A stretch of DNA of 22,684 nucleotides from a virus. Taxonomy: Duplodnaviria > Heunggongvirae > Uroviricota > Caudoviricetes. Below, one piece after another: positions 989-21,421 of the stretch; the stretch's first letter is position 1, and every line of letters begins with the position of its first letter. The notes under the pieces are model-generated. The model did not search any database and was not told the origin of the DNA. It saw nothing but the letters and a program-made list of their open reading frames with translations. Location: the IMG/VR virus record IMGVR_UViG_2711768076_000014, positions 1 to 22,684 of that record; one strand, written 5' to 3'. A program made the translations under genes and the position numbers.

Positions 989-1639
989 TTAATTTGATTT
1001 ATTCGCATCCATCAACGCTTTTAACTCCTCCGGCGTAAACGGTGGTTTGCGTCGGTGCAGCATCGCATGGCAATTAGGGCACACAGGAAGCAAATCATTA
1101 ACTGGATCCAGCTGGTAATCCTCTTTAATGGCTGAAAGCGGCACCAGGTGATGCACATGGATAAAGCCTTCAGCGATATCACCATAGATCTTCACCAGAT
1201 CAACGCCGCATACGTTGCATTGGCATCCATGATGTTCGACCGCTTTATCTCGGGCCTTTTTATCGCGTTCATAGCGGTTTACTGTCACCTTTATCGCCGC
1301 ACCTTCAACGTAGGTCCCCTGCGACGGCAGCTCATCCGGGAACAGAACGTCGGCTATGGGAGCCGCAGCGGCTTTATCCTGATGAATATGAAATCCCTGC
1401 TCTATGAGTAGCTTGACACATTTAGATTTTATTCCGCCGGTGAAATCCGCAGGGGTAAATTGCGTCCCCGTCATCAATGTCGCTGCGATGCCAGCAATCG
1501 CCTTCGAGGGATAACGTCGGCCATGATATTCAATTTCATACAACCGTGCAGGCTGGAACTGATGAGTTTCTCCCGCATCCCATAAATGAATAGCTTCGAT
1601 GATATACCGCCGCGGAAGATGATCGGGGAGTTTATTCAT
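989..1639 (-). CDS. McrA-like HNH endonuclease with an unassigned N-terminal domain (putative modification-dependent restriction enzyme), 216 aa
   Basis: C-terminal CQCNVCG...HVHHLVPLS...PVCPNCHAMLH resembles the EcoKMcrA HNH/zinc-finger core as I recall it; SD-like AAGGA upstream of ATG; stop lies 7 bp from the nanS stop (convergent). Confidence 0.6.
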   Translation of the reverse strand: MNKLPDHLPRRYIIEAIHLWDAGETHQFQPARLYEIEYHGRRYPSKAIAGIAATLMTGTQFTPADFTGGIKSKCVKLLIEQGFHIHQDKAAAAPIADVLFPDELPSQGTYVEGAAIKVTVNRYERDKKARDKAVEHHGCQCNVCGVDLVKIYGDIAEGFIHVHHLVPLSAIKEDYQLDPVNDLLPVCPNCHAMLHRRKPPFTPEELKALMDANKSN

Positions 1640-1718
1640 AGAGAATGTCCTTATACGTTCTCAGAACAAGCAGCAAAAAAACAAATGAGATCAAAGTAAT
1701 ATATCTTCACTTGCAGGC

Positions 1719-1952
1719 TTGAACAGCAGAAAATTTGCGAGCATGATCGCAATTATTTCACTGCCAGGGATATCAATGGCTTCCAGTAAATCGCTACAGC
1801 AGGCAATTGCCAATATAAAAATCTGGCATAAGGGTGAACAGCGCGCACCGCATAAACCATTGTTATTGCTATACGTATTAGCGGGATACCTGAATGGACA
1901 TCCACGCCTTTTCGATTATTGTAGTGGAACAGTCTACGAGGATGCAGTTTGA
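1719..1952 (+). CDS. Hypothetical small protein (77 aa), possible gene remnant
   Basis: ORF only, in the 640-bp gap between the HNH gene start and abiEii stop; no clear SD; coding status uncertain. Confidence 0.15.
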   Translation: MNSRKFASMIAIISLPGISMASSKSLQQAIANIKIWHKGEQRAPHKPLLLLYVLAGYLNGHPRLFDYCSGTVYEDAV

Positions 1953-2017
1953 AGTGAGTAAGTAAAGGTTGCTGGAAACGATCAATGCCGCCATACAATG
2001 ATATTTGAGGATCAACA

Positions 2018-2203
2018 ATGAGTAATAAAAACTACGAAAGTCACCGCAAAGCGATTGTTAGTAAAGGTATACCACCCGCTCTATTAAATAGGCTCACCAA
2101 TTCGGATGTTCAGGTGATCAATACCTTCTTAACACGAGTGAGCAAACTGGAACTATCTCAACAAGAGAAAGACTGGATCATAAAAATCATCTCTATGGTT
2201 TAG
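2018..2203 (+). CDS. Hypothetical small protein (61 aa)
   Basis: ORF preceded by GAGGA about 6 nt before the ATG; no recognisable motif. Confidence 0.25.
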   Translation: MSNKNYESHRKAIVSKGIPPALLNRLTNSDVQVINTFLTRVSKLELSQQEKDWIIKIISMV

Positions 2204-2282
2204 AGAATTTCAGAATTTCAAGTAAAGACAATGCTGCATATCAAGCATTCAGGATGGCTAGCGCTAAGCTCCTAAACCTGGA

Positions 2283-3188
2283 TTAAGCCTCATCCCATGT
2301 GATCTTTCGCTCTCCATACACCATTGGCGAAACAAACTGCTGATAGCGCATCTCGTAGAGAGGATTGTTCGCCAACTCATCCAGTCCCATTTTTAGCTCA
2401 TCAACTGGAGACGCGCAAAACTGCGGGTACTGGTTGCCGTAACGCTGAATGTCCTGCTCAATAGTTTGTTGAACAAAATCAACGAGCAGACTCATATCAA
2501 CATGACTCGTCTCAACAATACAGTTTGTATCGTAGATATGACGTACCAGCGATGCATCATCAAATCGCTCAACATCTCGCACAACTGCCGCAGTACGACG
2601 TAACATCGCCACCAGCTTTTCTGCCTGTGTGCTAATGATAGTTGCGCATGGAAACGCTGAAACAATAGCCGCTTTTCCCGTGATCCCTGTTACCAGTGAA
2701 TGAATATCCCGTAATTCAGAAGGCTCCAGTAACTTCGCTTCCATCAATTCCAGCCGGATAAAAGGACGCAAACAAGGTGCCTGCACTACTCGCTGTGGAT
2801 AACGAACAGGTATGTCATTATAACGATATTCATCCCGCGTCACTTTTGGGTAATCATCATCAAAATTGAACACACCCGATGAAGCTATTGCACTGGAAAC
2901 TGCCTGAACAATTTCTTTACGGGTATTTTTTCGCTGAGTGCGGGAAAGTGCCTGAAATGCATCCTTAGGCACCAGTTTGATATCCACATCTTCCGACATG
3001 CGATTAAGTGCGACACCTGATTTTGCCAGAGCGGTTCCTCCGGCAAACACCAATTGATGAGTATCGAACACCAGAGGTTTAAGCAATTGCAAAAGCTCAA
3101 CGATATAGTGATCTTTTTCCACAATTGCGACAGACTCAATACCAAGCGCGTCAGCCACTTCAGAAAAAAGAGTGGTTAAATCATCCAT
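2283..3188 (-). CDS. AbiEii/AbiGii-family nucleotidyltransferase toxin (type IV TA / abortive infection), 301 aa
   Basis: N-terminal FAGGTALAKSG...RMSEDVDI fits the GS...D.D nucleotidyltransferase motif of the AbiEii/DUF1814 family; start overlaps the upstream wHTH gene stop by 8 bp. Confidence 0.7.
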   Translation of the reverse strand: MDDLTTLFSEVADALGIESVAIVEKDHYIVELLQLLKPLVFDTHQLVFAGGTALAKSGVALNRMSEDVDIKLVPKDAFQALSRTQRKNTRKEIVQAVSSAIASSGVFNFDDDYPKVTRDEYRYNDIPVRYPQRVVQAPCLRPFIRLELMEAKLLEPSELRDIHSLVTGITGKAAIVSAFPCATIISTQAEKLVAMLRRTAAVVRDVERFDDASLVRHIYDTNCIVETSHVDMSLLVDFVQQTIEQDIQRYGNQYPQFCASPVDELKMGLDELANNPLYEMRYQQFVSPMVYGERKITWDEA

Positions 3189-3576
3189 TTAATCTGCTGT
3201 TCCCTACAGATAATACGCGTTTAAAACGCCGGGGGGTTTTTATCTCGGGTGAAGCTGGGATCTGCGTAGAAGTACCGCTATTGTATGCCTGCGTTGCGCC
3301 AGCAAAACGATAGCGTACTTTCAGGCGTTCCAGCGTTTCGACAATCACCGCTGAAGAGCCTCCGGGAGCCGCTGGCATTACCTTGCCTGTAATACCGTTC
3401 CGCCGTGCTTTGGTATACACGCCATAACCAACCTTCAACAGTTGCCCTTCCCTGACAAGCTCGCGCAATACCCGACCAACCTGATCGTAGCCTGCAATAT
3501 CTTTAAAGTCGTCACGAGTGAATACGTAACGTTTAGAACGTTTCAGTCGTGACTGAATGCGTGCTTTTATCGTCAT
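3181..3576 (-). CDS. AbiEi-like antitoxin / winged-HTH transcriptional regulator (about 131 aa from the ATG with SD)
   Basis: MTIKARIQSRLKRSKRYVFTRDDF...VGRVLRELVREGQLLKVGYGVY resembles the AbiEi N-terminal wHTH; GGAGG sits 5 nt before the ATG ending at 3576; the six-frame ORF extends to 3645 but the upstream in-frame ATGs lack an SD. Confidence 0.6.
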   Translation of the reverse strand: MTIKARIQSRLKRSKRYVFTRDDFKDIAGYDQVGRVLRELVREGQLLKVGYGVYTKARRNGITGKVMPAAPGGSSAVIVETLERLKVRYRFAGATQAYNSGTSTQIPASPEIKTPRRFKRVLSVGNSRLNG

Positions 3577-3603
3577 ATTCGCCTCCAGAGTCATTGCATA
3601 AAG

Positions 3604-3646
3604 AGTAGCAAAAATACGACATTTTAGATAGCAAACATACGACATT
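3604..3646 (-). promoter_or_regulatory. Two tandem 20-bp direct repeats (period 23 bp) upstream of abiEi; putative operator/promoter
   Basis: Plus-strand agtagcaaaaatacgacatt (3604-3623) and gatagcaaacatacgacatt (3627-3646) match at 18 of 20 positions, immediately upstream of the SD-supported abiEi start. Confidence 0.4.
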
Positions 3647-4479
3647 CATTTTGCTGATAACGCTGACGGAAAGTGCTTCGCCACGATATCATTCATCTTA
3701 TCCACCAGATCCAGTCGCTTGAAAGTGATATGCCCACTGCCTTTCTGGTAATAGCGGATGACAAATAAATCGTCATCAAATACCTGTTCATGCGGGTGAG
3801 CACTAACGAAGTCCATAAACCGAATCGCAACATCATGCCGGTTATCGGGAATGGCCTTCCCATCCAGCAGATAGAACATACGCTCCAGATCGGCAAGCTG
3901 ATCTCGCCGCCAGCCCCAGTTCAGGCTGTAGCCCCATCTGTCATGCTTCACCAGATTGTTAACGATAATCTTCTTACCGAAATAACAGGGATTATTGGTT
4001 TTGTAGTCCCAGCTCAATCCCTTAAATACATTGATAACCCCACGTTCGAAAACGTCCTGCTTATTGTGGTGAAGTTGTTCAAAGGTACTCAGAATGTTGG
4101 CTTCGCTAATCGCCGGGAGATCGCCCTCTTCCAGGTTCTTTGCCCACTGACTGCGGGCTTCGGCATCCATCAGAGTCAACATCCCAGACTTCAGCATGAG
4201 ATCGCGCCAGATGCTGCGATCGATATTTCGGGTGATCACCGGCATCGCTTTGTCGGTTGGCTGCATCAGCCAGCAGTCAAAGGCATATCCATTTCGCATT
4301 GCCCAGGTTCCAGCCACATCACCGCCAATACTGGATGTCAGGCTGGAGATATCATCAAGTTTTTGGATTAACGCCGCTATCTGGTTCAGTGCACTATCAC
4401 GTCCTGTGACGATACGCTCGATACTGGTCGAGCAAATTAGTTCGTTATGATCGGTTAAGACTTCAGCTTCTGTCTGCAT
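3646..4479 (-). CDS. Hypothetical protein, 277 aa, no family assignable
   Basis: Long ORF filling the space between the hsdM divergent promoter region and the abiE operator; no catalytic motif recognised. Confidence 0.6.
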   Translation of the reverse strand: MQTEAEVLTDHNELICSTSIERIVTGRDSALNQIAALIQKLDDISSLTSSIGGDVAGTWAMRNGYAFDCWLMQPTDKAMPVITRNIDRSIWRDLMLKSGMLTLMDAEARSQWAKNLEEGDLPAISEANILSTFEQLHHNKQDVFERGVINVFKGLSWDYKTNNPCYFGKKIIVNNLVKHDRWGYSLNWGWRRDQLADLERMFYLLDGKAIPDNRHDVAIRFMDFVSAHPHEQVFDDDLFVIRYYQKGSGHITFKRLDLVDKMNDIVAKHFPSALSAK

Positions 4480-4784
4480 AATCTTTCATCCGTAAAAAAT
4501 ACACTCGCCGTTAGTAGCAGACGAATTATCCACTGGTGAAAGATTGGGTAAATAATGAGATTGAAAATCGGGAAGGTGACTCGCAATAAATTATCTGATC
4601 ACCTACGGATGGGCGATGGGCATATAAAGTAGCCTCCTGACTCAAGCGGTGAATGCTGAGTAAGATGCACTAACAATCTGGTACTGAATCCCCTCCTCAC
4701 CGTCATACAAATCTGAAAAACCAAACAACTTCCGGTAAAATCCCGGCAAAAGCCGACGTTAAAAACACATTCAAAGGATAAAAA

Positions 4785-6337
4785 ATGACCAGTCTTCAGC
4801 AGCGCGCGGAGCTTCATCGCCAAATCTGGCAAATTGCTAACGATGTCAGAGGTTCGGTCGATGGATGGGATTTTAAGCAATACGTTCTGGGCGCGCTTTT
4901 CTACCGTTTTATCAGCGAAAATTTTTCCAGCTATATTGAAGCCGGTGATGACAGTATCTGTTATGCGAAACTGGATGACAGCGTAATTACTGATGACATT
5001 AAAGACGATGCCATCAAAACTAAAGGCTACTTCATCTACCCCAGTCAGCTTTTCTGCAACGTAGCTGCGAAAGCAAATACTAATGACAGACTGAATGCAG
5101 ATTTAAACAGCATCTTCGTTGCTATCGAAAGTTCTGCTTACGGTTATCCTTCAGAAGCTGACATCAAAGGTTTGTTTGCTGATTTCGATACCACCAGTAA
5201 CCGCCTGGGTAACACCGTTAAAGATAAAAATGCCCGCCTGGCTGCGGTTCTGAAAGGGGTTGAAGGGTTAAAACTTGGTGACTTCAACGAACATCAGATT
5301 GACCTGTTCGGTGATGCCTATGAGTTCCTGATTTCTAACTATGCGGCAAATGCCGGTAAGTCAGGCGGTGAGTTCTTTACACCGCAGCACGTCTCCAAGC
5401 TGATTGCACAACTGGCTATGCACGGGCAGACCCACGTTAACAAAATCTACGACCCGGCAGCGGGTTCCGGCTCACTGTTGTTGCAGGCGAAAAAACAGTT
5501 TGATAACCATATCATCGAAGAAGGCTTTTTCGGTCAGGAAATCAACCATACGACCTATAACCTGGCGCGTATGAACATGTTTTTGCACAACATCAACTAC
5601 GACAAGTTTGATATCAAGCTTGGCAATACGCTGACTGAACCGCACTTCAGAGATGAAAAACCGTTTGATGCCATCGTTTCTAACCCGCCGTATTCGGTGA
5701 AATGGATTGGCAGCGATGACCCGACGCTGATTAACGATGAGCGTTTTGCCCCGGCTGGCGTTCTGGCCCCCAAATCCAAAGCTGACTTTGCGTTTGTATT
5801 ACATGCGCTGAACTATCTTTCGGCCAAAGGTCGTGCTGCGATTGTCTGCTTCCCGGGTATTTTTTACCGTGGCGGCGCAGAGCAGAAAATCCGTCAGTAT
5901 CTGGTCGATAATAACTATGTCGAAACCGTAATTTCACTGGCTCCGAACCTGTTCTTTGGCACCACCATTGCCGTAAACATTCTGGTTCTGTCCAAACATA
6001 AAACGGATACCAACGTTCAGTTTATTGATGCCAGCGAACTGTTCAAAAAAGAGACCAACAACAATATCCTGACCGATGCCCATATCGAACAAATTATGCA
6101 GGTATTCACCAGCAAGGAAGATGTTGCTCATCTGGCAAAATCTGTCGCGTTTGAAGCCGTTGTAGCGAATGACTATAACCTGTCGGTGAGCAGCTATGTA
6201 GAATCGAAAGATAACCGCGAAATTATCGATATTGCTGAGCTGAATGCAGAACTGAAAACTACGGTCAGCAAAATCGACCAGTTGCGTAAAGATATCGACT
6301 CAATTGTGGCAGAGATTGAAGGTGACGAGGTGCAGGG

Positions 6338-6341
<4 letters not shown>
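4785..6341 (+). CDS. hsdM: Type I restriction-modification N6-adenine DNA methyltransferase subunit HsdM, 518 aa
   Basis: SAM-binding [10 protein letters not shown] and catalytic NPPY ([12 protein letters not shown]); N-terminal HsdM-type domain; 4-bp ATGA overlap with hsdS. Confidence 0.9.
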
Positions 6342-7543
<1,202 letters not shown>

Positions 7544-7665
7544 TTGACCATTGCTACCGATCGGGCCACCTTAACACCCGGTCAGTATATAGACTATTTT
7601 TTTACGCGCCGGAAGTCACTCTTAACGCCCTTCCGGCTCTTGCCAGGCGGCACAAAGGATGCGCT

Positions 7666-10600
7666 ATGACTCATCAAACACACACCATTGCTGAATCCAA
7701 TAACTTTATCGTCCTTGATAAGTACATCAAAGCTGAGCAAACAAGCGACAGCTACCAGAGCGAATCGGACCTGGAACGTGAACTGATTCAGGACCTGCGG
7801 AATCAGGGTTATGAATTTATTTCGGTAAAATCACAGTCAGCGATGCAGGCCAACGTTCGGGAACAGCTTCAGAGCCTCAATGGTGTGGTGTTTAATGACA
7901 GCGAGTGGCGGCGTTTCACGGAGCAGTATCTGGATAACCCGAGCGATGGCATTCTGGATAAGACCCGTAAAATCCATATCGACTATATTTGCGACTTTAT
8001 TTTTGATGACGAGCGTCTTGAGAACATCTATTTGATAGATAAAAAGAATCTCATGCGCAATAAGGTGCAGATTATCCAGCAGTTTGAGCAGGCGGGTTCT
8101 CATGCTAACCGTTATGACGTCACGATCCTGGTTAATGGCTTACCACTGGTACAAATCGAACTGAAAAAGCGCGGCGTGGCGATTCGTGAGGCTTTCAACC
8201 AGATACATCGTTACAGTAAAGAGAGTTTTAACAGCGAAAATTCCCTGTTTAAGTATCTGCAACTGTTTGTCATTTCTAACGGCACCGATACCCGTTACTT
8301 TGCCAACACCACAAAGCGCGATAAAAACAGTTTTGACTTCACCATGAACTGGGCGAAATCAGACAACACGCTGATTAAAGACCTCAAAGATTTTACCGCT
8401 ACCTTTTTCCAGAAACATACTCTGCTTAATGTTCTGGTGAACTACAGCGTGTTCGATATTAGCCAGACGCTACTGGTGATGCGACCGTACCAGATTGCCG
8501 CTACCGAACGGATCTTATGGAAAATCAACAGTTCCTATAAAGCGAAAAACTGGTCTAACCCCGAAAGCGGTGGCTTTATCTGGCACACTACCGGTTCCGG
8601 TAAAACACTGACCAGCTTTAAAGCCGCGCGCCTGGCAACAGAACTGGACTTTATTGATAAAGTCTTCTTTGTGGTCGACAGGAAAGACCTCGATTACCAG
8701 ACGATGAAGGAATATCAGCGTTTTTCCCCAGACAGCGTCAACGGCTCGGAAAATACCGCAGGCCTTAAACGAAATCTGGATAAGGACGATAACAAAATTA
8801 TCGTCACCACTATTCAGAAACTTAATAACCTGATGAAAGCAGAAAGCGACCTGCCTGTATACAATCAGCAAGTGGTGTTTATATTTGATGAATGTCACCG
8901 CAGCCAGTTTGGAGAAGCGCAGAAAAATCTGAAGAAGAAATTCAAACGCTATTATCAGTTTGGTTTTACCGGCACACCTATTTTCCCGGAAAACGCTTTA
9001 GGCTCAGAAACGACCGCCAGCGTATTTGGTCGTGAATTGCATTCATATGTGATTACCGATGCGATTCGTGATGAAAAAGTGCTCAAATTCAAGGTGGACT
9101 ATAACGATGTGCGGCCCCAGTTTAAATCTTTAGAGACAGAAACCGACGAGAAAAAACTGAGTGCGGCTGAAAATCAGCAGGCGTTTCTTCATCCCATGCG
9201 TATACAGGAAATTACGCAATATATTCTGAATAACTTCCGCCAGAAGACCCACCGTACTTTCCCAGGTTCCAAAGGCTTTAATGCCATGCTGGCAGTGAGT
9301 AGCGTGGATGCCGCGAAAGCCTATTACGCGACGTTTAAACGGTTACAAGAGGAAGCAGCTAATAAATCGGCTACCTATAAACCGCTGCGTGTTGCGACAA
9401 TCTTCTCCTTTGCCGCCAATGAAGAACAAAATGCCATTGGTGAAATTTCCGATGAAACTTTTGATACCAGCGCAATGGACAGCAGTGCTAAAGAGTTTCT
9501 TGACGCTGCAATTCGTGAGTATAACAGCTATTTTAAAACTAACTTCAGCACCGACAGTAACGGTTTTCAGAACTACTATCGTGATTTAGCCCAACGGGTT
9601 AAAAATCAGGATATCGATCTGTTAATTGTCGTTGGGATGTTTTTAACCGGCTTCGACGCTCCAACATTGAACACGCTATTCGTCGATAAAAACTTGCGTT
9701 TTCACGGCCTGATGCAGGCATTCTCCCGCACCAACCGCATTTATAACGCCACTAAAACCTTCGGTAACATCGTCACTTTCCGGGATCTGGAACGCTCAAC
9801 CATTGATGCCATAACGCTGTTTGGTGATAAAAATACCAAAAATGTAGTGTTAGAAAAGAGTTATGCAGAGTATATGGAAGGCTTTACTGATGCTGCCACT
9901 GGTGAAGCTAAACGCGGCTTTATGGCAGTAGTTTCAGAACTGGAACAACGGTTCCCTGACCCTGCCAGTATTGAAAGTGAAAAAGAGAAGAAAGACTTCG
10001 TTAAACTGTTTGGTGAATACCTGCGTGCCGAGAACATCCTGCAAAACTATGATGAATTTGCCACGCTGAAAGCCCTGCAACAAATCGATCTTAGCGATCC
10101 TGTTGCGGTAGAAAAATTCAAAGAAGAACATTATGTGGATGATGAAAAGTTCGCTGAATTACAAACGATTCGTCTCCCTGCTGAACGCAAGATTCAGGAT
10201 TATCGTTCTGCCTATAACGATATTCGTGACTGGCAGCGCCGCGAGAAAGAGGCTGGCAAAAAAGAAAAGTTAACTACTGACTGGGATGACGTGGTTTTTG
10301 AAATCGATTTGCTGAAGTCTCAGGAAATAAACCTGGATTATATCCTTGGACTGATTTTCGAACACAACAGACAAAACAAAGGTAAGGGCGAAATGACCGA
10401 AGAGGTCAAGCGCTTAATTCGTTCGAGCCTTGGGAACCGTGCCAAAGAAGGTCTGGTGGTCGATTTTATTCAACAAACAAACCTGGATGATTTGCCGGAT
10501 AAAGCCAGCATCATTGACGCGTTTTTTACCTTTGCTCAACGCGAACAGCAACGTGAAGCAGAAGCATTGATCAAAGAAGAAAATCTCAATGAAGAGGCGG

Positions 10601-10782
10601 CGAAACGCTATATTCGCACGTCTTTAAAACGCGAATACGCCACCGAAAATGGCACGGAATTAAACGAGACATTGCCAAAACTCAGTCCGTTAAATCCGCA
10701 ATATAAGACGAAAAAACAGACGGTTTTCCAGAAGATCGTCGCGTTTATTGAGAAGTTTAAAGGTGTAGGCGGGCAGATATAA
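7666..10782 (+). CDS. hsdR: Type I R-M restriction subunit HsdR (helicase-nuclease), 1038 aa, EcoR124-like
   Basis: Endonuclease-type D...ELK block ([20 protein letters not shown]), Walker A TGSGKT, DECH box ([10 protein letters not shown]); length and N-terminus [20 protein letters not shown] match my recollection of EcoR124I HsdR; separated from hsdS by 122 bp, suggesting its own promoter. Confidence 0.9.
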
Positions 10783-11262: not shown

Positions 11263-12210
11263 TTAAATTTCATATTTTGAAATTTCGCTGATTACATCAT
11301 CCCCATATTTCTTAATCATGGAGGCAAAGAATTTATGTTCAATAAATTTCGCATAGCCTAATTCTCCTTTAAGGGTTAGAATTTCTTTCTCAGATAAAAC
11401 CCCACACACATAATAATGTATTTTACTTCTTAAAAGACGCTTTCTATCACGACCTAAAGACAAATAACCATCAGTCGTAATAGTTACACCAGTTACATGT
11501 CTATTAAACTTCCTTGAGGTAAAAACTGTTTTCTCATGGTTTATTTTAATATTCCTAAGATTTACTACGTTAAGAACTTCCCTTACTAACTTAGGAACAT
11601 CAAATAAAGCTCCTTTGACTTTGGTGCTAAACGTAAGATCATCAGCATACCTTGAGTAGGTAATACCCAAATCCTTGCATCTTTTCGATATTTCCTCATC
11701 GAAGAAATACATTACTGTATTTGAAATAATGGGAGAAGAAGGTGCTCCAACACTTAGGCGTAACGGGCTATTTCTTCTTAACTTCCAGAAGAAAAGATTT
11801 TTAAGAACAAAGATATCAGTATCAGTTAGTTCAACGCCATAATCTTTTAAGACAGATAAAAGATTATGGGGTTTGATACTCATAAAAAAGTTTTTAAAAT
11901 CCATTTTAAGCAAATAATCATTATTACAATGCATTAACGCATTAGATCTAATACTTTTATCGGCTTCATAAGCGAAAGCATTTTCATGAACTTTCAAATT
12001 AGCCAACATATGATTGATTACTACCTTCTGTAAGGCTTTAACTTGCCTAGCTGGTTGTGCAATTAATCTATATCCATTACCATTTCTTTTGGCGATAGGA
12101 TAAATTTTATATCTGCGTGGAATAGTAACAATATACCTTTTAGCCTCTTCTTCGCTAAGAAAAAGACCTTTTGAAATATAACTTAGCAACTCCATTCTAA
12201 GCCCCTCCAC
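11263..12210 (-). CDS. Retron-type reverse transcriptase, 315 aa
   Basis: RT blocks YRLIAQPARQVKALQKVV, LKMDFKNFFMSI, SVGAPSSPIISN, YSRYADDLTFS (YADD catalytic box) and VTGVTIT (retron VTG signature); size as for Ec73/Ec86-class retron RTs. Confidence 0.85.
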   Translation of the reverse strand: MEGLRMELLSYISKGLFLSEEEAKRYIVTIPRRYKIYPIAKRNGNGYRLIAQPARQVKALQKVVINHMLANLKVHENAFAYEADKSIRSNALMHCNNDYLLKMDFKNFFMSIKPHNLLSVLKDYGVELTDTDIFVLKNLFFWKLRRNSPLRLSVGAPSSPIISNTVMYFFDEEISKRCKDLGITYSRYADDLTFSTKVKGALFDVPKLVREVLNVVNLRNIKINHEKTVFTSRKFNRHVTGVTITTDGYLSLGRDRKRLLRSKIHYYVCGVLSEKEILTLKGELGYAKFIEHKFFASMIKKYGDDVISEISKYEI

Positions 12211-13183
12211 GCACGATATTGATTTGATTTAGAGCATTTTTCCTTTTTTTTGCAGTCTCGTCCATATCTTTAGCATCCATACTTAAGTAAGATTGTCGGA
12301 TTGCAACCTTAATATTCATAGAATCCTTTATTTTACCACTAGCACTGATACCAAATTTAAGTTTACTCTCTCTATGCCCTCGGGAATAGAAGTAGTCTGT
12401 ACCACTGTAAGATAATGATGAGGTTAATTTCATCTTTTCAAGCAAATAAAGTAAACGAGTTATTATTTTTTGTGGCACATCTATATCCATACAGTATAGT
12501 GCCCACTCTATTTCGCTTTTCTTGATTGGTTCTGATAAAAGGATTATTTCGTAAATCAATATAGCTAGGTGCCCAGTATTTTCAGGGTTATATCGCTCCG
12601 TTTTTTTTACACGTTTTAATCTAGAATGAATATCATGGTAGATAAGCTCAACCTCATCATATTTCATACGATCCGATTTTGGCCATGGATAAACTGATAC
12701 TGAGGCCTCATCTATTTTTTTAAGATACTCCAAAGGGCCTAAATATATAAAAGAAGATCTAGCAGGAATATTTTTTCGTTCATTTCCCTCAATCTCCTCA
12801 AATGGTGCGACTACATGCAATTTTTGAGCTAGAGACTTCCTATTAACAAATAATCCAAGCTCAACTAACGAACCTGCACTTTCTAAACAGATAACAACTA
12901 ATGTTGAAATATTTGCAATATCATCTTCAAAGCTCATTAGATCTGAATATGCCCCCTCTCTGAAGTAGTCATGGAAGTTCTCAGCTAAAATAAGAGAATC
13001 TGACAATTCAGGTTTGTGGCCTGCTACATAAGTAAATATGTGGTCTCGTACACTCATTGGAGTGGAATTTATCGGCCCACCACAAACAAAAATAATAGGA
13101 GGCATGAACTGAACAGTGAAATTTGAATATTTCAAATCTCCAAACTGCTCTTGTAATGCATTCATATATGCAGAATCACTCAC
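12197..13183 (-). CDS. Retron accessory/effector protein (type II-like, possibly nucleoside deoxyribosyltransferase-like plus DNA-binding), 328 aa
   Basis: Lies between the msd hairpin and the RT gene and overlaps the RT start by 14 bp; AT-rich like the RT gene; family assigned by context only. Start is GTG at 13183 or ATG at 13165. Confidence 0.6.
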   Translation of the reverse strand: MSDSAYMNALQEQFGDLKYSNFTVQFMPPIIFVCGGPINSTPMSVRDHIFTYVAGHKPELSDSLILAENFHDYFREGAYSDLMSFEDDIANISTLVVICLESAGSLVELGLFVNRKSLAQKLHVVAPFEEIEGNERKNIPARSSFIYLGPLEYLKKIDEASVSVYPWPKSDRMKYDEVELIYHDIHSRLKRVKKTERYNPENTGHLAILIYEIILLSEPIKKSEIEWALYCMDIDVPQKIITRLLYLLEKMKLTSSLSYSGTDYFYSRGHRESKLKFGISASGKIKDSMNIKVAIRQSYLSMDAKDMDETAKKRKNALNQINIVRGGA

Positions 13184-14088: not shown

Positions 14089-14640
14089 TCACTCCTGTAT
14101 ATCGTTAATGTCATTCAGGCGTTGCTGAAAACGCAGATGTTGTGCCGGGGTGTAAGAACCCTGGCAATCACGAATCATCCCGGGGTCAGGCATCAAACCG
14201 GATTCATCCAGGATCTCACGATAATCCCCGGCAATTTCAGGCGGTGTTATTGCCAGCTGGCGAACCAGAGCACTGCGTAATATACGGGACGCAACGTCAA
14301 CCCCTCCGCGCCCCTTCAGGAACGGAGCCAGTGCAGATGTCAGGGCTGCCCCATTCGCCTGCATAAAATTGCTGAGAGCGGCTTCTGTGCAGGCCTCCAT
14401 CAGTAAATGCTGCGAGTAAATGCATTCGCGCGCAGCACAGTTAATTTGCCATTTCAGCACATCCAGACGTTCCCGCAGTAATTCGAGCTGTCGGGCATAA
14501 TCTGCTGGTTTTTCTGTGGCAGCGAGGAGAGATGTTATCTGTTGTTCAACGGCTTTTCGGCTCTCATTATGTCCGGCCCACAGAATACGGGCATTCCGAA
14601 AACTGGTAAGTGCCTGGTCAGGCGTGCCTCGGGCCGTCAT
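14089..14640 (-). CDS. psu: Psu-like polarity-suppression / capsid-decoration protein, 183 aa
   Basis: Blocks LKWQINCAAR, FMQANGAALTSALAPFL and YTPAQHL resemble my recollection of P4 Psu (190 aa); ATGA overlap with the upstream gene. Confidence 0.55.
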   Translation of the reverse strand: MTARGTPDQALTSFRNARILWAGHNESRKAVEQQITSLLAATEKPADYARQLELLRERLDVLKWQINCAARECIYSQHLLMEACTEAALSNFMQANGAALTSALAPFLKGRGGVDVASRILRSALVRQLAITPPEIAGDYREILDESGLMPDPGMIRDCQGSYTPAQHLRFQQRLNDINDIQE

Positions 14641-15380
14641 ACTGCTTTCTCCTTCTCAGCAAGTTCCTGACGAACCTTAATTTTATGCATAGCTGCCGGA
14701 GAGAGTTGATTACTGAAATCCAGACGCGCCGCATAATCCGGGGCAACTCCCGCCAGTTTAAACACCGGGTCCTGCTCAGGCATCGCATCGTTAGCCAGAG
14801 CCGGTCTGGTGATATGTTTATGAATAAAGTCTTTCAGCACTGTGTCCGGGTCATTAACTGAATTCACCACACCCACAACGGCACTGGCTTCCCGGCCCAT
14901 TGTGGATTTAAGCAGGCTCAGCGTCTGAATAAGCGCTTTTCCATGCGACTGCATAAAATCCTCCCAGATTTGTTTTGCGCGAATATCCACAAGAATGTTA
15001 TGCGCGTGGATATACTTTCCGGCTAATTCTGCAGCTTTCTGCGGCAAAAGTGCATTTTCGCTTTCCTGAGCCGCCAGCAGCTCATCAAAATCCTCAAGCG
15101 TTTCTCGTCCCAGCGCAATTTCCGTGCGCAGTTTTTTCATTTCCTTTGAGACCACGCCCTGACTTTCACGAAACAGCGTGCGCCACTCCTCATTCAGTGT
15201 GTTCGTCGTGGCTTCCATTTCAGCGCGACGCTGGCGGATTGTCGCAATATTATCCGCTGCCGCTTTCTGCTGACGACGTGCTTCAAGCCATGCGTTTCTG
15301 GCTGTGTTCATGGTTTCCAGTGCCCGCTGCGTTACAGCCGGAAAAGTGGAAAGGTTGTTATTCACTGCGGTGTTGTTCAT
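14637..15380 (-). CDS. Sid-like external scaffold (capsid size determination) protein, 247 aa, tentative
   Basis: Size close to P4 Sid (244 aa), Ala/Glu/Arg-rich helical character, first gene of the operon with Psu and Ogr/Delta, preceded by AGGAG and TGT-N12-ACA dyads; no direct motif match recalled. Confidence 0.4.
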   Translation of the reverse strand: MNNTAVNNNLSTFPAVTQRALETMNTARNAWLEARRQQKAAADNIATIRQRRAEMEATTNTLNEEWRTLFRESQGVVSKEMKKLRTEIALGRETLEDFDELLAAQESENALLPQKAAELAGKYIHAHNILVDIRAKQIWEDFMQSHGKALIQTLSLLKSTMGREASAVVGVVNSVNDPDTVLKDFIHKHITRPALANDAMPEQDPVFKLAGVAPDYAARLDFSNQLSPAAMHKIKVRQELAEKEKAV

Positions 15381-15415
15381 GACTTCTCCTGTCGGGTTGG
15401 TTCGTTACGTCAATT

Positions 15416-15471
15416 GTGTCGTGGCTGACACAAGCACACTATCGGTGCTCAGTGTGTGGTGGCTGGCACAA
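15416..15471 (-). promoter_or_regulatory. Two TGT-N12-ACA dyads (putative Ogr/Delta-dependent late promoter of the sid-psu-delta operon)
   Basis: tgtGTCGTGGCTGACaca at 15416-15433 and tgtGTGGTGGCTGGCaca at 15454-15471, 36 to 82 bp upstream of the sid-like ATG; P2/P4 late promoters carry this element. Confidence 0.5.
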
Positions 15472-15558
15472 CGGACGCTTGCGGTTATTCAGACGTGGCT
15501 ATGAAAGCCAGCCAGATAAAAATGCCCTCTGTTTCAGTCTGCTTTATGTCCCTGATGC

Positions 15559-15747
15559 GGTGGAACAGGTGAAACATGTGTTACAGCTTTGTTTTATAAG
15601 GCATTTATATACACTGCACCGGTGGAACATCGCGGGTAACAAGGTGGAACAGCGGATTGGCTGGCGTTACATCTGTTCCACCTCACTATTTCAGAAGGTG
15701 GAACAGGTTCAGCCCTGTAAAATACGGTTGTTCCACCTGTTTCACCT
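15559..15747. repeat. Iteron array: at least 6 copies of GGTGGAACAG / CTGTTCCACC in both orientations (putative ori or crr)
   Basis: Copies at 15559, 15621 (variant), 15643, 15673 (inverted), 15697, 15728 (inverted), plus tgtttcacc at 15739; immediately downstream of the primase gene; resembles the P4 alpha-binding octamer TGTTCACC (from memory). Confidence 0.5.
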
Positions 15748-15780
15748 GTTACCCTTAATAAATAAGACTCACGCAAAGCC

Positions 15781-18453
15781 TTAACCCGGCACCTCGCTGT
15801 TGAAGACATAGAGCCTGCGGGGATTCATCTCTGGCGGGCGAATGGTTGTCTGGAGTTTGCCATCAGTGGAGGGCAGCAGGTATCCACGATCTGCGCACAG
15901 ACGCGCCACCTTGCGCGGGTCAAATCCCCTGCAGATTTCTTTCCAGCCGGACGGCATGACATAGAACGTAGTGACAGCTTCCGTGCCCTGCGCGGTACTG
16001 CCTTTCTCCACCCTGCGCCAGCCCACCATATTGCCGGGGCGGTTGCGCTCGTCATACCAGTCTGCAAAGCGGCTGTACTGATTCGCGGTAAAGAAACTGC
16101 GAACCTGCTCCAGTGCGGCGATATCTTCCTGATTGGCGGTGTGCCCGCGATCTTTCAGCCATGCGTTCAGGCAGACGCGGGTTGCCCGCAGTGCTTCACC
16201 CTCAGGCCAGCCGGTGATACCCAGACGGGTTGCCAGTTCACCTGCCATCGCCACCAGAGCAAAGCGGTTCACAGCCCGGCCCACCTGATTGCCTGCATCT
16301 TTCGGAGTCAGGGCGGCAGCATATTCCTTCATCAGCGATTTTGCCTGTGCCGTTAGTCCGTTAAGATCAGCGGTCAGTGCTTTCAGCCACTCCCGGAACG
16401 GCGAACCGTAGTAGCAGGACGTGGCCCATTCAAGATGCTCTGCCAGAGCCTTGCCGCTGTCGAAGCCGTGCAGCTCCTCAAAAACGCCAAACTTCCCGGA
16501 ATCGCTGGGGATCTGGATCATCCTGACTTCCATCCCGGCAAAAGTACGCTCACCGGCCTTTGCCGCATGTTCGGTCAGAGACAACTCGCCAGTTGAAAAG
16601 AACAACAGGCGCCAATGCTTACGGGTACGCAGCTCACCGTCCGTACCGGCACGGCCCTTGCCCTGACCGTTTGCCAGCATGTAGGCGATATTGCCTGCCT
16701 CGCGTCCGTCAACTTCCCGGATCTCATCAAGCATCATGGCGGCATCGTTGCGGCGGCTGGCGCATCCCTCCAGCGCGTTGCCGGTGGCCCGCCATGTCTG
16801 CCAGTAGTCAGGCCCGCCGCAGACGGAGGTTGCCGCTTTCATGGTGGTGGTCTTACCGTCTGTCGATTCCCCTTTGAGGTGGTAGCCGCCGCCGTCCATA
16901 CCAACCAGCCGTAACAGTGGTGCAGCAAAGGCCAGGCTGACAGCAAATGCCACGCGGGAGTTGCCGGTACAGTAGCGGGATACATGCTCCCGCCATTCCT
17001 CTGTTGTGCCCGACACGCGGAAATCACGCCCCTGCACGGAAGTGGTCTGGAGAATGACACCCTCTGCACCTTCACCGCTGACCTCATCCTGCAGGACGTA
17101 AACCTGACCATGCCAGCCAGTACGACTGACGCAGGTCACGCGGCGTTCCGGTTTACACAGTGAGATATATTCCATCAGGCGTGCGCGTGCCTCACCGGTG
17201 GTGCTGATATAAGACAGCCCGTTAACCAGCAATACCCGGCGCAGTTCCTCACCACTGCCGCTCAGCATTTCCATCGGCATCGCCCAGCGGCGACACTCAC
17301 CCCACGTATCTTCCCATTCCAGCAGTCGTCCGAAGTTACCGCCATCGGCATCGCAGGTGATTGCCGTCACGCGCAGCGGGCTGCATATTTTGACGTTCTG
17401 GATCTCCGTCTCACCGTTGCGCTGTACCTGCTTTTCATACCAGAGATATTCCTGGGTAAGACGGAACCCGTGCGGCAGTTGCGTGCGGCCCTCCCCGCAC
17501 AGCACCAGACCGTTACGAAAGGCTTCACGGGCGCGGGTAATACCGTGCTCCCGATGGAAGTCATTCCAGTCGGCCTTAATCTCTCCCGGTGGCAGCGTCA
17601 TCCAGCCGCCAACAGCTTTTGCCGCCCGTTCAGCAAAGGCTCTGCCGGGATTCTCACCCCCGTCCTGAAAATCGTTATCACCGGCGATGATAATTTTTAC
17701 CTCAGGCCAGCGTGCCCGCAGCGACTGCGCCACATTGGGCAGGTTGCCCGCAGATATGGCAGCCACTACGCATCCGGCAGTGAGCTGACTTACCGTCAGC
17801 GCCGTAGCGTAACCTTCGGTAATCACCACCTGTACCGGTGGTTCAGACGGTAACGGGCTGAGCGACACAAACGCGCCTTTCATCGTGCTGCCGGGCAGTA
17901 TGCTTTTTTCACCCGTCGGGGCGATAAGCTGTGCACCAGTCACGGCTCCGGTGTTGGTCGTGAGTGGTAACAGCAGGGAACCGGCAGGAAAATCCTTACC
18001 GCTGATATGCTGCACGCTTCCGGTCAGAGAGGCCGGGTATCCGGCGAACCCTTTTCCTGTCAGATAGGCGCTTTCTCCCGTGTGGCTCTCTTTCATCAGC
18101 GCCGCCACGGTAAGACCCATGTCGCGTTTAGGGGCTTTTTTTCTGGCAGGCTTAACAGGCAGTTCCTGCACATCCGGCACATTAAGCACCTGCGCCACCT
18201 CCTGCGCAGCCTTTCTGACGCTGTAACCGGTTACGAGCTTAACCAGATCCAGACCGTCACCATTGCCACACTGGCTGCAGATCCACGTCCCGCGCCCGTC
18301 AAGGTCATCAAGGCGAAAACGATCCTTGCCCCCACATTTCGGGCAGGGACCGTGCCTGCCGTTTTCAGGTACATCAATACGCAGCATCTGGAGAATAACG
18401 GGCCATTTCCCCCGTGCGGCGGCTGAAATCTGCGTAACCGTCTGTATTGTCAT
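15781..18453 (-). CDS. Phage/plasmid primase-helicase (P4 alpha-like), 890 aa
   Basis: N-terminal zinc-binding CPKCGGKDRF...CSQCGNGDG, Toprim-like IIAGDNDFQDGGENPG, P-loop GESTDGKTT; largest ORF of the element. Confidence 0.85.
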   Translation of the reverse strand: MTIQTVTQISAAARGKWPVILQMLRIDVPENGRHGPCPKCGGKDRFRLDDLDGRGTWICSQCGNGDGLDLVKLVTGYSVRKAAQEVAQVLNVPDVQELPVKPARKKAPKRDMGLTVAALMKESHTGESAYLTGKGFAGYPASLTGSVQHISGKDFPAGSLLLPLTTNTGAVTGAQLIAPTGEKSILPGSTMKGAFVSLSPLPSEPPVQVVITEGYATALTVSQLTAGCVVAAISAGNLPNVAQSLRARWPEVKIIIAGDNDFQDGGENPGRAFAERAAKAVGGWMTLPPGEIKADWNDFHREHGITRAREAFRNGLVLCGEGRTQLPHGFRLTQEYLWYEKQVQRNGETEIQNVKICSPLRVTAITCDADGGNFGRLLEWEDTWGECRRWAMPMEMLSGSGEELRRVLLVNGLSYISTTGEARARLMEYISLCKPERRVTCVSRTGWHGQVYVLQDEVSGEGAEGVILQTTSVQGRDFRVSGTTEEWREHVSRYCTGNSRVAFAVSLAFAAPLLRLVGMDGGGYHLKGESTDGKTTTMKAATSVCGGPDYWQTWRATGNALEGCASRRNDAAMMLDEIREVDGREAGNIAYMLANGQGKGRAGTDGELRTRKHWRLLFFSTGELSLTEHAAKAGERTFAGMEVRMIQIPSDSGKFGVFEELHGFDSGKALAEHLEWATSCYYGSPFREWLKALTADLNGLTAQAKSLMKEYAAALTPKDAGNQVGRAVNRFALVAMAGELATRLGITGWPEGEALRATRVCLNAWLKDRGHTANQEDIAALEQVRSFFTANQYSRFADWYDERNRPGNMVGWRRVEKGSTAQGTEAVTTFYVMPSGWKEICRGFDPRKVARLCADRGYLLPSTDGKLQTTIRPPEMNPRRLYVFNSEVPG

Positions 18454-18833
18454 ACTTCCCCCTGATACAACGTCACACCGGTACTGCAGAAGTCATCAAA
18501 GGCCGCCGGAAGCGTGCGGTACATCTCCGCCATCACTTCACAGCCGCGCGCGGTCAGTACCGGCGGCGCGGTCAGCAGTGACGGCTCCAGCATGTCAGTC
18601 AGCAGTGCCAGCGCGGCAGCGGCGCCCTGTGCTTCGCCGTACTCGTTAATCAGTACGCACTCGATATGCAGCGCAATGGCCATTTCAATACGCTCCACCG
18701 TCAGGCTGTGCGGACCATACTGATCACTGCCAGTTTCGTTCAGCATTTTCTGCCGCCATGCTGAAGCAATAGCCCGCCGGTAAAGCGCGGTGGTCATTTC
18801 TGCCGGGAAAATGGAAACCTGCGGCTGGTTCAT
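18450..18833 (-). CDS. Hypothetical P4-like small protein, 127 aa
   Basis: AGGAGG 6 nt upstream of ATG; stop overlaps the primase start (ATGA); start overlaps the upstream ORF stop. Confidence 0.5.
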   Translation of the reverse strand: MNQPQVSIFPAEMTTALYRRAIASAWRQKMLNETGSDQYGPHSLTVERIEMAIALHIECVLINEYGEAQGAAAALALLTDMLEPSLLTAPPVLTARGCEVMAEMYRTLPAAFDDFCSTGVTLYQGEV

Positions 18834-19114
18834 CTGGCACCTCCTTCAATCAGTGCGCAGCTGTGTGCAATATCCGTCAAATCTGCCAGCAGGTACTCCA
18901 TCAGCGCGGCGACACCATGCGCACAGCCAGCGTCCAGTGCTCCGGCCTGAGACGGGTATTCAGAAAAGAGAAGCTGGAGCATGTCGCAGGCATTTCTTGC
19001 GCGGGTCAGTTTTCCGAAACTGTCCTCTGACAACCCATAGGCAAAAGCACCGGTATTGTGTTTTTCAGGCAAAGTGTGGCCCTGAGCACCGTTGTGCCCG
19101 TTTGAAATATTCAT
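18830..19114 (-). CDS. Hypothetical P4-like small protein, 94 aa
   Basis: GGAG 6 nt upstream of ATG; translationally coupled to the downstream gene. Confidence 0.45.
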   Translation of the reverse strand: MNISNGHNGAQGHTLPEKHNTGAFAYGLSEDSFGKLTRARNACDMLQLLFSEYPSQAGALDAGCAHGVAALMEYLLADLTDIAHSCALIEGGAR

Positions 19115-19145
19115 CGTGGATTACTCCGTTTTCAGCGGTATTTTG

Positions 19146-19505
19146 TCAGAGAAACTTTGAATAGTGACCGTCGTCAGGCTCAGCAGAACGCCGTATGCTA
19201 CGCTCCCGCCAGCGGATAAATAGCACAGACGGATGCAGTGTCAGCGGGCCGGAACCACTACCGCCAGCAGGAGCTGGTGCAGGCTTCAAGAGCGGTACAT
19301 CAAACAGGCGCGTATACCGCTGTTCAAACCATGCCAGAGGGCAGGAAGAAAGCTGGTTGTCGCTGTCATGACGTATCAGCACTTCACAGCTGAATTCAGG
19401 ATTAACCAGCGCCACAGAGGGCGAGGCTTCTATTAATCGGATAATCGTGACCGTCCAGCCACGTTCATGCTGCCAGCGTTCGCCGGGGTGCGGATAATTA
19501 CGCAT
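19146..19505 (-). CDS. Hypothetical P4-like small protein, about 119 aa
   Basis: GGAGG 5 nt upstream of the ATG at 19505 (MRNYPHPGERWQ...); the six-frame ORF extends further to 19535. Confidence 0.45.
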   Translation of the reverse strand: MRNYPHPGERWQHERGWTVTIIRLIEASPSVALVNPEFSCEVLIRHDSDNQLSSCPLAWFEQRYTRLFDVPLLKPAPAPAGGSGSGPLTLHPSVLFIRWRERSIRRSAEPDDGHYSKFL

Positions 19506-19674
19506 GTTCACCTCCGCAGGGAATGCGCCCGGCAAAGCTCAGTACATAGTCCGGGGCAAGTCTGCGCCGCGCTGACCGCTCGTTATCTGCGGTGATCCTT
19601 AACATCACAGGACGGGCATTGCGTTGACTGCGGTTGATCGCCGCAAATAACCAGGTACACTTCTGTTTAGCCAT
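19498..19674 (-). CDS. Hypothetical small basic protein, about 58 aa
   Basis: GAGGT 7 nt upstream of the ATG at 19674 (MAKQKCTWLF...); stop overlaps the next gene start; C-terminal part of a longer six-frame ORF that I otherwise reject. Confidence 0.35.
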   Translation of the reverse strand: MAKQKCTWLFAAINRSQRNARPVMLRITADNERSARRRLAPDYVLSFAGRIPCGGEHA

Positions 19675-19750
19675 CTTCGTTACCTCATTTAGCGGATTGG
19701 TCAGAAGCCCGGTTAGTGTTGCTGCACTGTCGGGCTTCGCACTCACAAGG

Positions 19751-19840
19751 TGAATCGCACCTTTAATTTTAAAGCTACCCTTAAGTGAATCGCACTTCAA
19801 GCTTTTTATTATCATTTTTTTTGCATATACTGAATCGCAC
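19751..19840. promoter_or_regulatory. Three direct copies of TGAATCGCAC in the divergent control region
   Basis: Exact 10-mers at 19751-19760, 19786-19795 and 19831-19840, between the leftward small-gene cluster and the rightward 61-aa gene; the last copy overlaps a TATACT -10-like hexamer (19826-19831). Confidence 0.4.
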
Positions 19841-19861
19841 CTAACGCGAGGAGATCCAGTA

Positions 19862-20047
19862 ATGGCAACGAGTTCAACTAACAACAAGTCGCAGCAACTT
19901 AATGCTCGTTTCCCACATGATGTAGTTGCAGAATTAGAAAGCAACCTTGAAGATGGAGAAACGAAAGCGCAATTCATTGTTACGGCTGTAAAAGGCGAGA
20001 TTAAACGCCGACAGCGCAGGAAAAATAAGCCAGAGCAAGGAAGTTGA
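19862..20047 (+). CDS. Small putative DNA-binding regulator, 61 aa, basic C-terminus
   Basis: AGGAG 8 nt before ATG; the only plus-strand gene in the P4-like module, divergent from the small-gene cluster; basic tail KRRQRRKNK. Confidence 0.45.
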   Translation: MATSSTNNKSQQLNARFPHDVVAELESNLEDGETKAQFIVTAVKGEIKRRQRRKNKPEQGS

Positions 20048-20143
20048 ATAGAGAAGCCAACAGACGTTCTCTCTGTTTCCATGTTAATTTCAGTAAGCGA
20101 CAATATTTTTAAGCCCACAAATTCATTATGTCGGGCTTTTTTA

Positions 20144-21392: not shown

Positions 21393-21421
21393 TTAAATCT
21401 CTCCGCAGCCCCCAATGGTAA

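Follow-up and report, generated by a model that had tools for sequence, protein, structure and literature searches.

Introduction

The closest described relatives of the locus treated here are the AbiE modules of Streptococcus agalactiae and Lactococcus lactis, the MenAT3 (Rv1044-Rv1045) and MenAT4 (Rv2827c-Rv2826c) pairs of Mycobacterium tuberculosis, and the SanaTA toxin-antitoxin (TA) system. We analysed a stretch of 22,684 nucleotides (nt) of viral DNA, positions 1 to 22,684 of the IMG/VR record IMGVR_UViG_2711768076_000014 (Caudoviricetes), hereafter called the window, which carries two overlapping genes and a pair of direct repeats at positions 2283 to 3646. An original prediction, made from the sequence alone, had taken these for an AbiE-like pair with a tandem operator. 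With good confidence, we read the locus as a bicistronic AbiE-family TA or abortive-infection module of the SanaTA-type branch, lying in a defence-gene cluster and working by the mechanism proposed in the last section. The gene pair is already recognised by RefSeq, PADLOC and Pfam and is no new kind of system; the conserved, putative head-to-tail operator is a modest detail that is apparently unreported.

In S. agalactiae and L. lactis, the winged-helix antitoxin is encoded first in a bicistronic operon, and repeats lie over the promoter. AbiEi and Rv2827c repress their own promoters via such promoter-covering repeats; for Rv2827c, these are four inverted repeats, bound with negative cooperativity. 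Rv1044 shows no binding to its promoter. The toxicity of S. agalactiae AbiEii depends on G49, R63, D67, D69, K173, R180 and D192, as determined by mutagenesis, and its motif reads hG[G/S]x15DhD (PMC3985639). The MenT toxins nucleotidylate tRNA 3' ends (PMC7450476). Binding of AbiEi leads to auto-phosphorylation of AbiEii at T65, which abolishes its activity, and AbiE is being moved from type IV to type VII. Antitoxin-induced phosphorylation has been demonstrated for AbiEii T65, MenT3 S78 and MenT1 T39.

For SanaTA (Sberro et al. 2013), a preprint describes protection against T7 lacking gp4.5, with Lon thought to remove the antitoxin (bioRxiv 10.64898/2026.01.19.700257). The same preprint gives a length of 136 amino acids (aa) for SanaA, names S65 of SanaT as the equivalent of the AbiEii T65 phospho-acceptor, and predicts a type VII mechanism for SanaA/SanaT.

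Layout of the gene pair

The minus strand of the window holds a 301-aa open reading frame (ORF) at 3188-2283 with a small winged-helix gene directly upstream. The features of the pair are as follows:

3181-3576, minus strand: abiEi/sanaA-like antitoxin gene, 131 aa, DUF6088
2283-3188, minus strand: abiEii/sanaT-like toxin gene; its 301-aa product is a DUF1814 nucleotidyltransferase of the Pol-beta type, cut short by a TAA at 2285-2283
3181-3188, minus strand: 8-nt overlap ATGGATGA, read directly from the sequence, with the toxin start within the antitoxin end
3582-3586, minus strand: Shine-Dalgarno sequence GGAGG of the antitoxin, read from the sequence, 6 nt upstream of the ATG
2241-2282, minus strand: remnant of the toxin 3' end, 13 codons and a TGA, translated in the full-length 315-aa allele

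The claim that a winged helix-turn-helix (wHTH) gene overlaps a nucleotidyltransferase gene thus holds, with 8 nt shared between the 131-aa frame (3576-3181) and the toxin frame (3188-2283). An overlap of this ATGnnTGA type is common to most related loci and suggests that translation of the toxin is coupled to that of the antitoxin. The mechanical ORF of the antitoxin opens at 3645. However, its real start is the ATG at 3576, because GGAGG precedes it at the spacing given above, the 131-aa homologues open with MTIKAR, RefSeq makes the same call, and the alignment to the PADLOC AbiEi profile begins at ORF residue 24. The extra 23 'codons' are the repeats, each of which contains an ATG. An AGGAGG-like block is found in the same position at most homologous loci.

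Family and fold of the two proteins

The toxin matched the Pfam family PF08843 (AbiEii) with an E-value of 3.3e-29 and 103 bits (cut-off 22.5), and the PADLOC AbiEii model with an E-value of 1.1e-124. An AlphaFold2 model was built from the 315-aa allele with 41 sequences and reached a mean predicted local distance difference test score (pLDDT) of 91.8 and a predicted template modelling score of 0.90. In Foldseek, this model was closest to MenT4 (6Y56, E 4e-8), followed by MenT3/TglT (6J7O and 6Y5U, E 1e-5). The toxin is therewith a member of DUF1814/PF08843 with a Pol-beta nucleotidyltransferase fold. The MenAT3 and MenAT4 toxins, although the best structural matches, share only 13-22% identity with it, and their antitoxins are larger, with two domains. 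The lengths of homologous toxins range from 313 to 327 aa.

All residues defined by mutagenesis in S. agalactiae AbiEii are matched here by G50/G51, R63, D67, D69, K191, R198 and D211. Motifs I-IV of the two toxins have nearly the same numbering, with G49/G50 against G50/G51, identical positions for R63, D67 and D69, and T65 against S65. The 'GS...D.D' motif reported in the original prediction was the right nucleotidyltransferase motif loosely written: the sequence reads A-G50-G51-x15-D67-V-D69, which fits the published consensus, and a serine, S65, stands two residues ahead of the first catalytic aspartate. Motif III is K191-LVAML-R197-R198 (KLxAxxxR-type), and the motif IV aspartate is D211. 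G50, G51, R63, S65, D67, D69, K191, R198 and D211 all occur in the toxin and vary little or not at all among the 41 homologues. S65, within RMS-EDVD, is invariant in the toxin family and is a candidate phospho-acceptor position by analogy with AbiEii T65 and MenT3 S78.

The antitoxin scored 30.4 bits against Pfam DUF6088 (cut-off 25) and 24.2 bits against AbiEi_4, just short of the cut-off of 25, so Pfam places it in DUF6088 and not in the canonical AbiEi families. The PADLOC AbiEi model (131 positions) was matched with an E-value of 3e-53. The AlphaFold2 model (pLDDT 86) shows H1-S1-H2-H3-wing followed by a small alpha/beta part, with about 65 residues past the wing. Among the Foldseek results, the S. 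agalactiae AbiEi structure 6Y8Q was the best near-full-length match, second by E-value and first by probability (0.98); other matches were winged helices of the Fur, GntR and CRP types. A phmmer search of both proteins against the Protein Data Bank (PDB) sequences returned nothing useful, as the identity to the S. agalactiae and L. lactis AbiE proteins is too low for a match, and the link to AbiEi and MenT comes from fold comparison only. Taken together, the Pfam, PADLOC and RefSeq names agree, the toxin fold resembles MenT4 and MenT3, and the antitoxin model is a winged helix, all of which bears out the assignment as an AbiEi/AbiEii-like pair.

Assignment to the SanaTA-type branch

The pair belongs to the short-antitoxin (SanaTA-type) branch of AbiE and not to the canonical two-domain AbiEi, as judged from its sequence and domain content. 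Canonical two-domain AbiEi proteins (COG5340/DUF4095) are about 195-290 aa long and carry a large C-terminal domain, S. agalactiae AbiEi lying at about 195 aa, whereas the antitoxin of the window has 131 aa. A profile of the short antitoxins collected 946 clusters at 50% identity (412 at E ≤1e-10), mostly of 130-145 aa, so that the family is established and of moderately large size.

When plasmids were searched with tblastn, a DUF6088 (136 aa) and AbiEii (313 aa) pair came up in Shewanella sp. ANA-3 (plasmid NC_008573, 21935-23283). The antitoxins of the window and of ANA-3 share 45% identity over 124 aa (E 3e-38), and the toxins 45% over 299 aa (E 1e-95), almost the whole of each protein. The ANA-3 pair is very probably SanaA/SanaT, since a 136-aa antitoxin and an S65 in RMS-EDVD fit the preprint. 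In both systems, the first gene of an overlapping operon encodes a short DUF6088 antitoxin (~131-136 aa) and the second a DUF1814 toxin (~313-315 aa). Ser65 stands ahead of EDVD in both toxins and is aligned between them, and both pairs are found on mobile elements adjoining type I restriction-modification (R-M) genes. They differ in that the toxin of the window is truncated and in that the Shewanella/Vibrio box upstream of the operon reads TGCCGTATTTATTC in one clear copy, with a second copy that is degenerate at best. Toxicity, protection against T7 lacking gp4.5 and Lon dependence are features of SanaTA, and with its truncated toxin, the module in the window may or may not share them. Many homologues bear the legacy names 'S-adenosylhomocysteine hydrolase' and 'pyrophosphatase', and in a Vibrio study, DefenseFinder labels pairs with these names SanaTA (SanaA, SanaT).

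The antitoxin P0095 (76% identity) comes from Prodigiosinella confusarubida, which we take to be Serratia sp. ATCC 39006. It was considered as the validated AbiE-A3 and rejected, as the AbiE-A3 sequence differs (MQTTAIQLSELDQQGRYVF...; supplementary alignment). Therefore, no functional data transfer from the AbiE-A3 paper.

A tandem box over the predicted promoter

Upstream of the antitoxin gene, the following elements were located together with the neighbouring gene:

3629-3646, minus strand: distal putative operator box AATGTCGTATGTTTGCTA, core 3644-3629, abutting the DUF4942 stop codon and covering the -35 position
3606-3623, minus strand: proximal putative operator box AATGTCGTATTTTTGCTA, core 3621-3606, with its 3' end overlapping the extended -10
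3602-3610, minus strand: predicted extended -10, TGc-TACTCT, a conserved TGn-TAnnnT over the 3' end of the proximal box
3646-4479, minus strand: DUF4942 gene, its stop touching the distal box; a recurrent neighbour of abiE in Enterobacterales only

The two direct repeats are 18 nt long and identical at 17 of 18 positions, with 23 nt from start to start, and the proximal one ends 29 nt ahead of the antitoxin ATG. The original prediction of two 20-bp repeats with a 23-bp period directly upstream was thus right in coordinates, period and position; only the length had to be corrected to 18 nt. The repeat pattern has two matches in the window, both of them here, and none of 100 dinucleotide-preserving shuffles gave two matches.

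Relatives of the antitoxin were then compared at 62 fetched loci, one genome per species, covering 99-52% protein identity (63 loci including the window). When 387 kb of these sequences were searched on both strands for TGTCGTATGTTTGCT with up to 3 mismatches, 108 occurrences fell within 150 nt upstream of an antitoxin start, and 7 fell elsewhere. The 16-nt box TGTCGTATnTTTGCTA stands in the same place upstream of the antitoxin at 58 of the 63 loci, in several gammaproteobacterial orders. Two direct copies are present at 48 of the 63 loci (spacing of 23 bp at 38, 24 bp at 9 and 22 bp at 1), one copy at 10 and none at 5. In both copies, almost all positions of TGTCGTATnTTTGCTA carry about 2 bits of information, against mostly less than 1 bit in the flanking DNA. 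When the loci are aligned as DNA, they become similar exactly from the distal box onwards, and the DNA upstream is unrelated.

Enterobacterales, Moraxellaceae, Alteromonadales, Aeromonas and Legionella, including plasmids of the latter two, share the 16-nt box in almost identical form. It remains near-invariant in the Alteromonadales, where antitoxin identity drops to 52-56% and toxin identity to 45-48%; the box is therefore better conserved than the proteins. On a Sinorhizobium plasmid, the box has drifted to CGTGTCGGnTnTTTG and still forms two direct copies 24 bp apart. Within the antitoxin, the recognition helix YDQ[VI]GR and the wing GYG.YTKAR are invariant wherever the TGTCGTAT box occurs.

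Given this near-invariant sequence at a fixed position between unrelated flanks, the idea that the repeats are an operator of the wHTH protein gains weight, and their reading as a putative, strongly conserved repressor-binding site is strongly supported. Since the box is fixed in sequence, position and register across hosts, chromosomes and plasmids, its reader should move with the module, and the antitoxin is the obvious candidate. The TG, TA and final T positions of TGn-TAnnnT are invariant in the 38 distinct loci with 23-bp spacing (of 47 distinct two-copy loci), and transcription is inferred to start near 3595, downstream of both boxes. With the proximal box on the extended -10 and the distal box on the -35, both boxes lie on promoter elements, as negative autoregulation requires. 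More specifically, we see an even chance that the short SanaA-type antitoxins read DNA in another way than the AbiEi proteins characterised so far, binding as one monomer per box, head to tail and in a fixed 23-bp register, with the 3' end of the proximal box serving as the extended -10.

The tandem operator is not common to all DUF6088 loci. Bradyrhizobium has palindromes instead, no clear repeats were seen at the DUF6088 loci of Komagataeibacter, Sulfitobacter and a small Acinetobacter wuhouensis plasmid, and those of Nostoc, Ralstonia and Synechocystis had no repeats but short, unrelated ones. The repeat finder missed the distal copy of Shewanella and Vibrio, which is too degenerate. By these comparisons, the tandem layout is a trait of this clade and not of DUF6088 as a whole. 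We found neither a description of a direct-repeat AbiEi operator nor functional work on DUF6088 in the literature, and the tandem direct layout appears to be undescribed so far.

Several loci show further variation. A third copy of the box, inverted and upstream of the direct pair, is present at position -99 from the antitoxin start at locus L004 (a perfect copy) and at about -100 at L065. The five loci without a box (L032-L036; Pectobacterium and Photorhabdus luminescens) encode intact antitoxin homologues of 76-78% identity and also lack the toxin gene; at L033, L035 and L036, the antitoxin directly follows the end of an ORF of RelE/ParE-like appearance. These antitoxins may be orphans or may have been re-used. 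A common E. coli paralogue, P0087 (L078-L080), has a 75% identical antitoxin and occurs in hundreds of E. coli contigs; its locus follows CbeA-CbtA-DUF5983 and a degraded DUF4942 gene and carries a single box, TGCCGTATTGTTGCTA, and then TGcTATCAT. On the Sinorhizobium fredii GR64 plasmid p64a (L068), a 43% identical antitoxin homologue lies between traH and traM in the conjugal transfer region and is annotated in the deposited record as 'conjugative transfer positive regulator protein'. Inside the window, a box-like sequence, TGTCGCTTGTTTGCT, with 2 mismatches lies at 7736-7750 on the minus strand within hsdR (about 0.04 expected by chance in the window), and a second one with 3 mismatches lies in hsdM. 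Both are single, intragenic and near what chance would give, and the hsdR site is probably coincidental.

Weighing the assignment

Several observations weigh against the picture of an active, self-repressing SanaTA-type module. Protein length and residue number, and not an accession, are what ties the ANA-3 pair to SanaTA. The structural match of the antitoxin to 6Y8Q is weak (E 0.036, TM 0.39), and most of the C-terminal domain, the seat of antitoxicity in S. agalactiae AbiEi, is missing from the antitoxin. The operator geometry is unlike that of every characterised AbiEi operator, all of which are inverted repeats: S. agalactiae has two 23-bp inverted repeats 3 bp apart, whereas the two boxes of the window are direct and repeat every 23 bp. 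Any stoichiometry or cooperativity of binding is therefore a guess. The -35 of the window, TATCTA (3630-3625, in the 3' end of the distal box), is poor, as it is in enterics; in Acinetobacter, it is TCGACA and good. A simple consensus promoter scan of the window called no promoter here, as is expected of a promoter dependent on an extended -10. With regard to function, S. agalactiae AbiE gave no protection against 32 coliphages (bioRxiv 10.64898/2026.01.19.700257), and our literature search found no binding, repression, toxicity or phage-defence data for this locus or its close homologues. Finally, the toxin allele of the window is truncated, and plainly broken toxin genes stand beside intact antitoxins at about 20 of the 62 related loci.

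The truncation is due to codon 302, which is TAA in the window and TAC (Tyr302) in the 99% identical Shigella locus L002 and in protein P0121. This nonsense change removes the last 14 residues of the toxin, which is most of the modelled terminal helix 298-314 (pLDDT ~96) and includes the nearly invariant F305. It is the minority form: exact 33-mers counted in complete Escherichia coli genomes gave 16 with TAA and 136 with TAC. The toxicity of the 301-aa allele is uncertain, and the truncation lowers confidence that this copy is active. The foremost alternative is a decayed module, in which the nonsense mutation has inactivated the toxin and the locus is kept only as the gene of an autoregulated DNA-binding protein with a dead partner. 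The frequent toxin pseudogenes among related loci fit such a course, as does the commonest E. coli toxin paralogue, P0235, which is frameshifted near its C-terminus, and the loss of the toxin while the antitoxin stays intact appears to be common in this family. However, all catalytic motifs and 96% of the toxin are intact, the allele is identical in isolates of varied hosts and sources, and RefSeq annotates it as a normal gene. On balance, we regard decay as a serious possibility, though not the likelier outcome, and keep the TA module as the preferred reading.

A second alternative is a three-gene system, in which the DUF4942 protein would be a functional, co-transcribed third component and the repeats an internal regulatory site. 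The DUF4942 stop codon does abut the distal box with no terminator in between, and about 20 enterobacterial loci of several genera have the gene immediately upstream in the same orientation. However, DUF4942 is absent at all non-enterobacterial and many enterobacterial loci while the boxes and the gene pair persist, and DUF4942 lies outside the homology between loci, which starts only at the distal box. Moreover, the DUF4942 gene of the common E. coli paralogue is the degraded last member of a CbeA-CbtA-type island, which suggests a shared insertion site and not a shared function. We consider a three-gene system very unlikely; DUF4942, absent outside the Enterobacterales and degraded in the paralogue, was rejected as a core component and is a frequent neighbour only.

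We attach hardly any credence to the remaining idea that the repeats bind no protein and are a promoter duplication, a scar of recombination or a repeat in a transcribed RNA (type III antitoxin), for although each repeat contains the partly promoter-like TTTGCTA, three loci (L013, L022 and L047) differ from their relatives by exactly one 23-bp unit and have a single copy, and the RNA fold z-score is -1.98 (weak), the most conserved half, TGTCGTAT, has no promoter-like role and is yet invariant across orders, the 23-bp register and its persistence over unrelated hosts and replicons point to a module-encoded factor, and the predicted transcription start lies downstream of both boxes. A type III TA system (ToxIN/AbiQ-like) was rejected in particular, as there are two units only, ahead of a protein antitoxin gene, and the toxin they accompany is no endoribonuclease but a nucleotidyltransferase. 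Rfam gave no match in positions 1900-4900 at E ≤1 and none at the gathering score across the whole window.

Genomic context

The window runs from nanS (1-981) through an HNH endonuclease gene, the abiE pair, DUF4942 and a type I R-M system to a P4-like satellite, with a retron at the satellite end adjoining hsdR. The features beyond the abiE pair and DUF4942 are:

989-1639: HNH endonuclease gene, 216 aa, between nanS and the abiE pair
about 1776-1925: fragment named 'truncated phosphorothioate-DNA-dependent restriction endonuclease' by RefSeq, between nanS and the abiE pair
4785-10782: EcoR124-like type I R-M system, divergent from the abiE pair and 1.2 kb away
11263-13183, minus strand: reverse-transcriptase gene (PF00078, E 1.5e-27) overlapping a 328-aa gene that has no Pfam match
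14089-22684, minus strand: P4-like satellite backbone with Psu, a Psu-like/Sid protein, an 890-aa TOPRIM/DUF927 primase and a tyrosine integrase whose gene begins with the final base of the window

The HNH gene and the restriction-endonuclease fragment look like remnants of other defence genes. The DUF4942 protein aligns with the N-terminal portion of phrog_6263, a family of phage DNA methyltransferases (E 1e-14). For the reverse-transcriptase and 328-aa gene pair, the best E. coli matches are annotated as the reverse transcriptase and effector of the retron St85 family. HsdR carries an EcoR124_C domain, and hsdS (6338-7543) contains a perfect 12-bp tandem repeat of 3.3 copies (6836-6875) that encodes TAEL three times in central HsdS; the number of TAEL copies sets the length of the recognition-site spacer in EcoR124I and EcoR124II. 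On three Shewanella and Vibrio plasmids (L064, L066 and L070), a type I hsdM gene starts about 8 nt past the toxin stop on the same strand, and toxin and hsdM may form a single operon there.

The DNA of the window is that of E. coli. Many complete genomes of this species match positions 2100-4600 with 100% identity, and 134 of 5426 hold at least 80% of this 2.5-kb stretch. RefSeq names its products 'nucleotidyl transferase AbiEii/AbiGii toxin family protein', 'DUF6088 family protein' and 'DUF4942 domain-containing protein'. No single place in any complete E. coli genome covers more than 60% of the window. The best E. coli match, AMSHJX01 (Dsr2, leuX), is collinear with the window only at about 989-10782, and the right part of the window is a different P4-like satellite with its retron. 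As collinearity is limited in this way, the surroundings of AMSHJX01 (Dsr2, leuX) were ruled out as the context of the window.

Proposed mechanism and significance

According to the proposed mechanism, a sigma-70 promoter with an extended -10 (TGcTACTCT, 3610-3602) would drive a single mRNA, from which the antitoxin would be translated starting at ATG 3576 and the toxin by coupling through the ATGGATGA overlap. One 131-aa antitoxin molecule would occupy each 16-nt box of the two that lie head to tail 23 bp apart, and this occupancy over the extended -10 and the -35 would block RNA polymerase and thus cause negative autoregulation. If the toxin works like its homologues MenT1/3/4 and S. agalactiae AbiEii, it would add nucleotides to tRNA 3' ends, so that aminoacylation and translation would be blocked. 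Docking of the antitoxin on the toxin may induce auto-phosphorylation at Ser65, the type VII behaviour predicted for SanaA/SanaT. By analogy with SanaTA, a phage that shuts off host expression would cause the loss of the labile antitoxin, possibly via Lon, and the toxin would then arrest the cell. In the allele of the window, the toxin may be weakened or dead owing to the 14 lost residues, and in this case, mainly an autoregulated antitoxin would be left.

AbiE and SanaTA are among the commonest defence and TA modules, and work on their mechanism is active, covering both tRNA nucleotidylation and the reclassification as type VII. This E. coli allele may not be toxic, which is relevant when choosing a homologue to clone. 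As the box is almost identical across orders, antitoxins on different mobile elements could cross-repress each other's promoters. For the little-studied short-antitoxin (DUF6088) branch, the analysis yields a testable operator model consisting of a 16-nt tandem box that overlaps an extended -10. The comparison also shows natural variants in box copy number, and if the model of one monomer per box is true, these one-, two- and three-box variants would set different expression levels.

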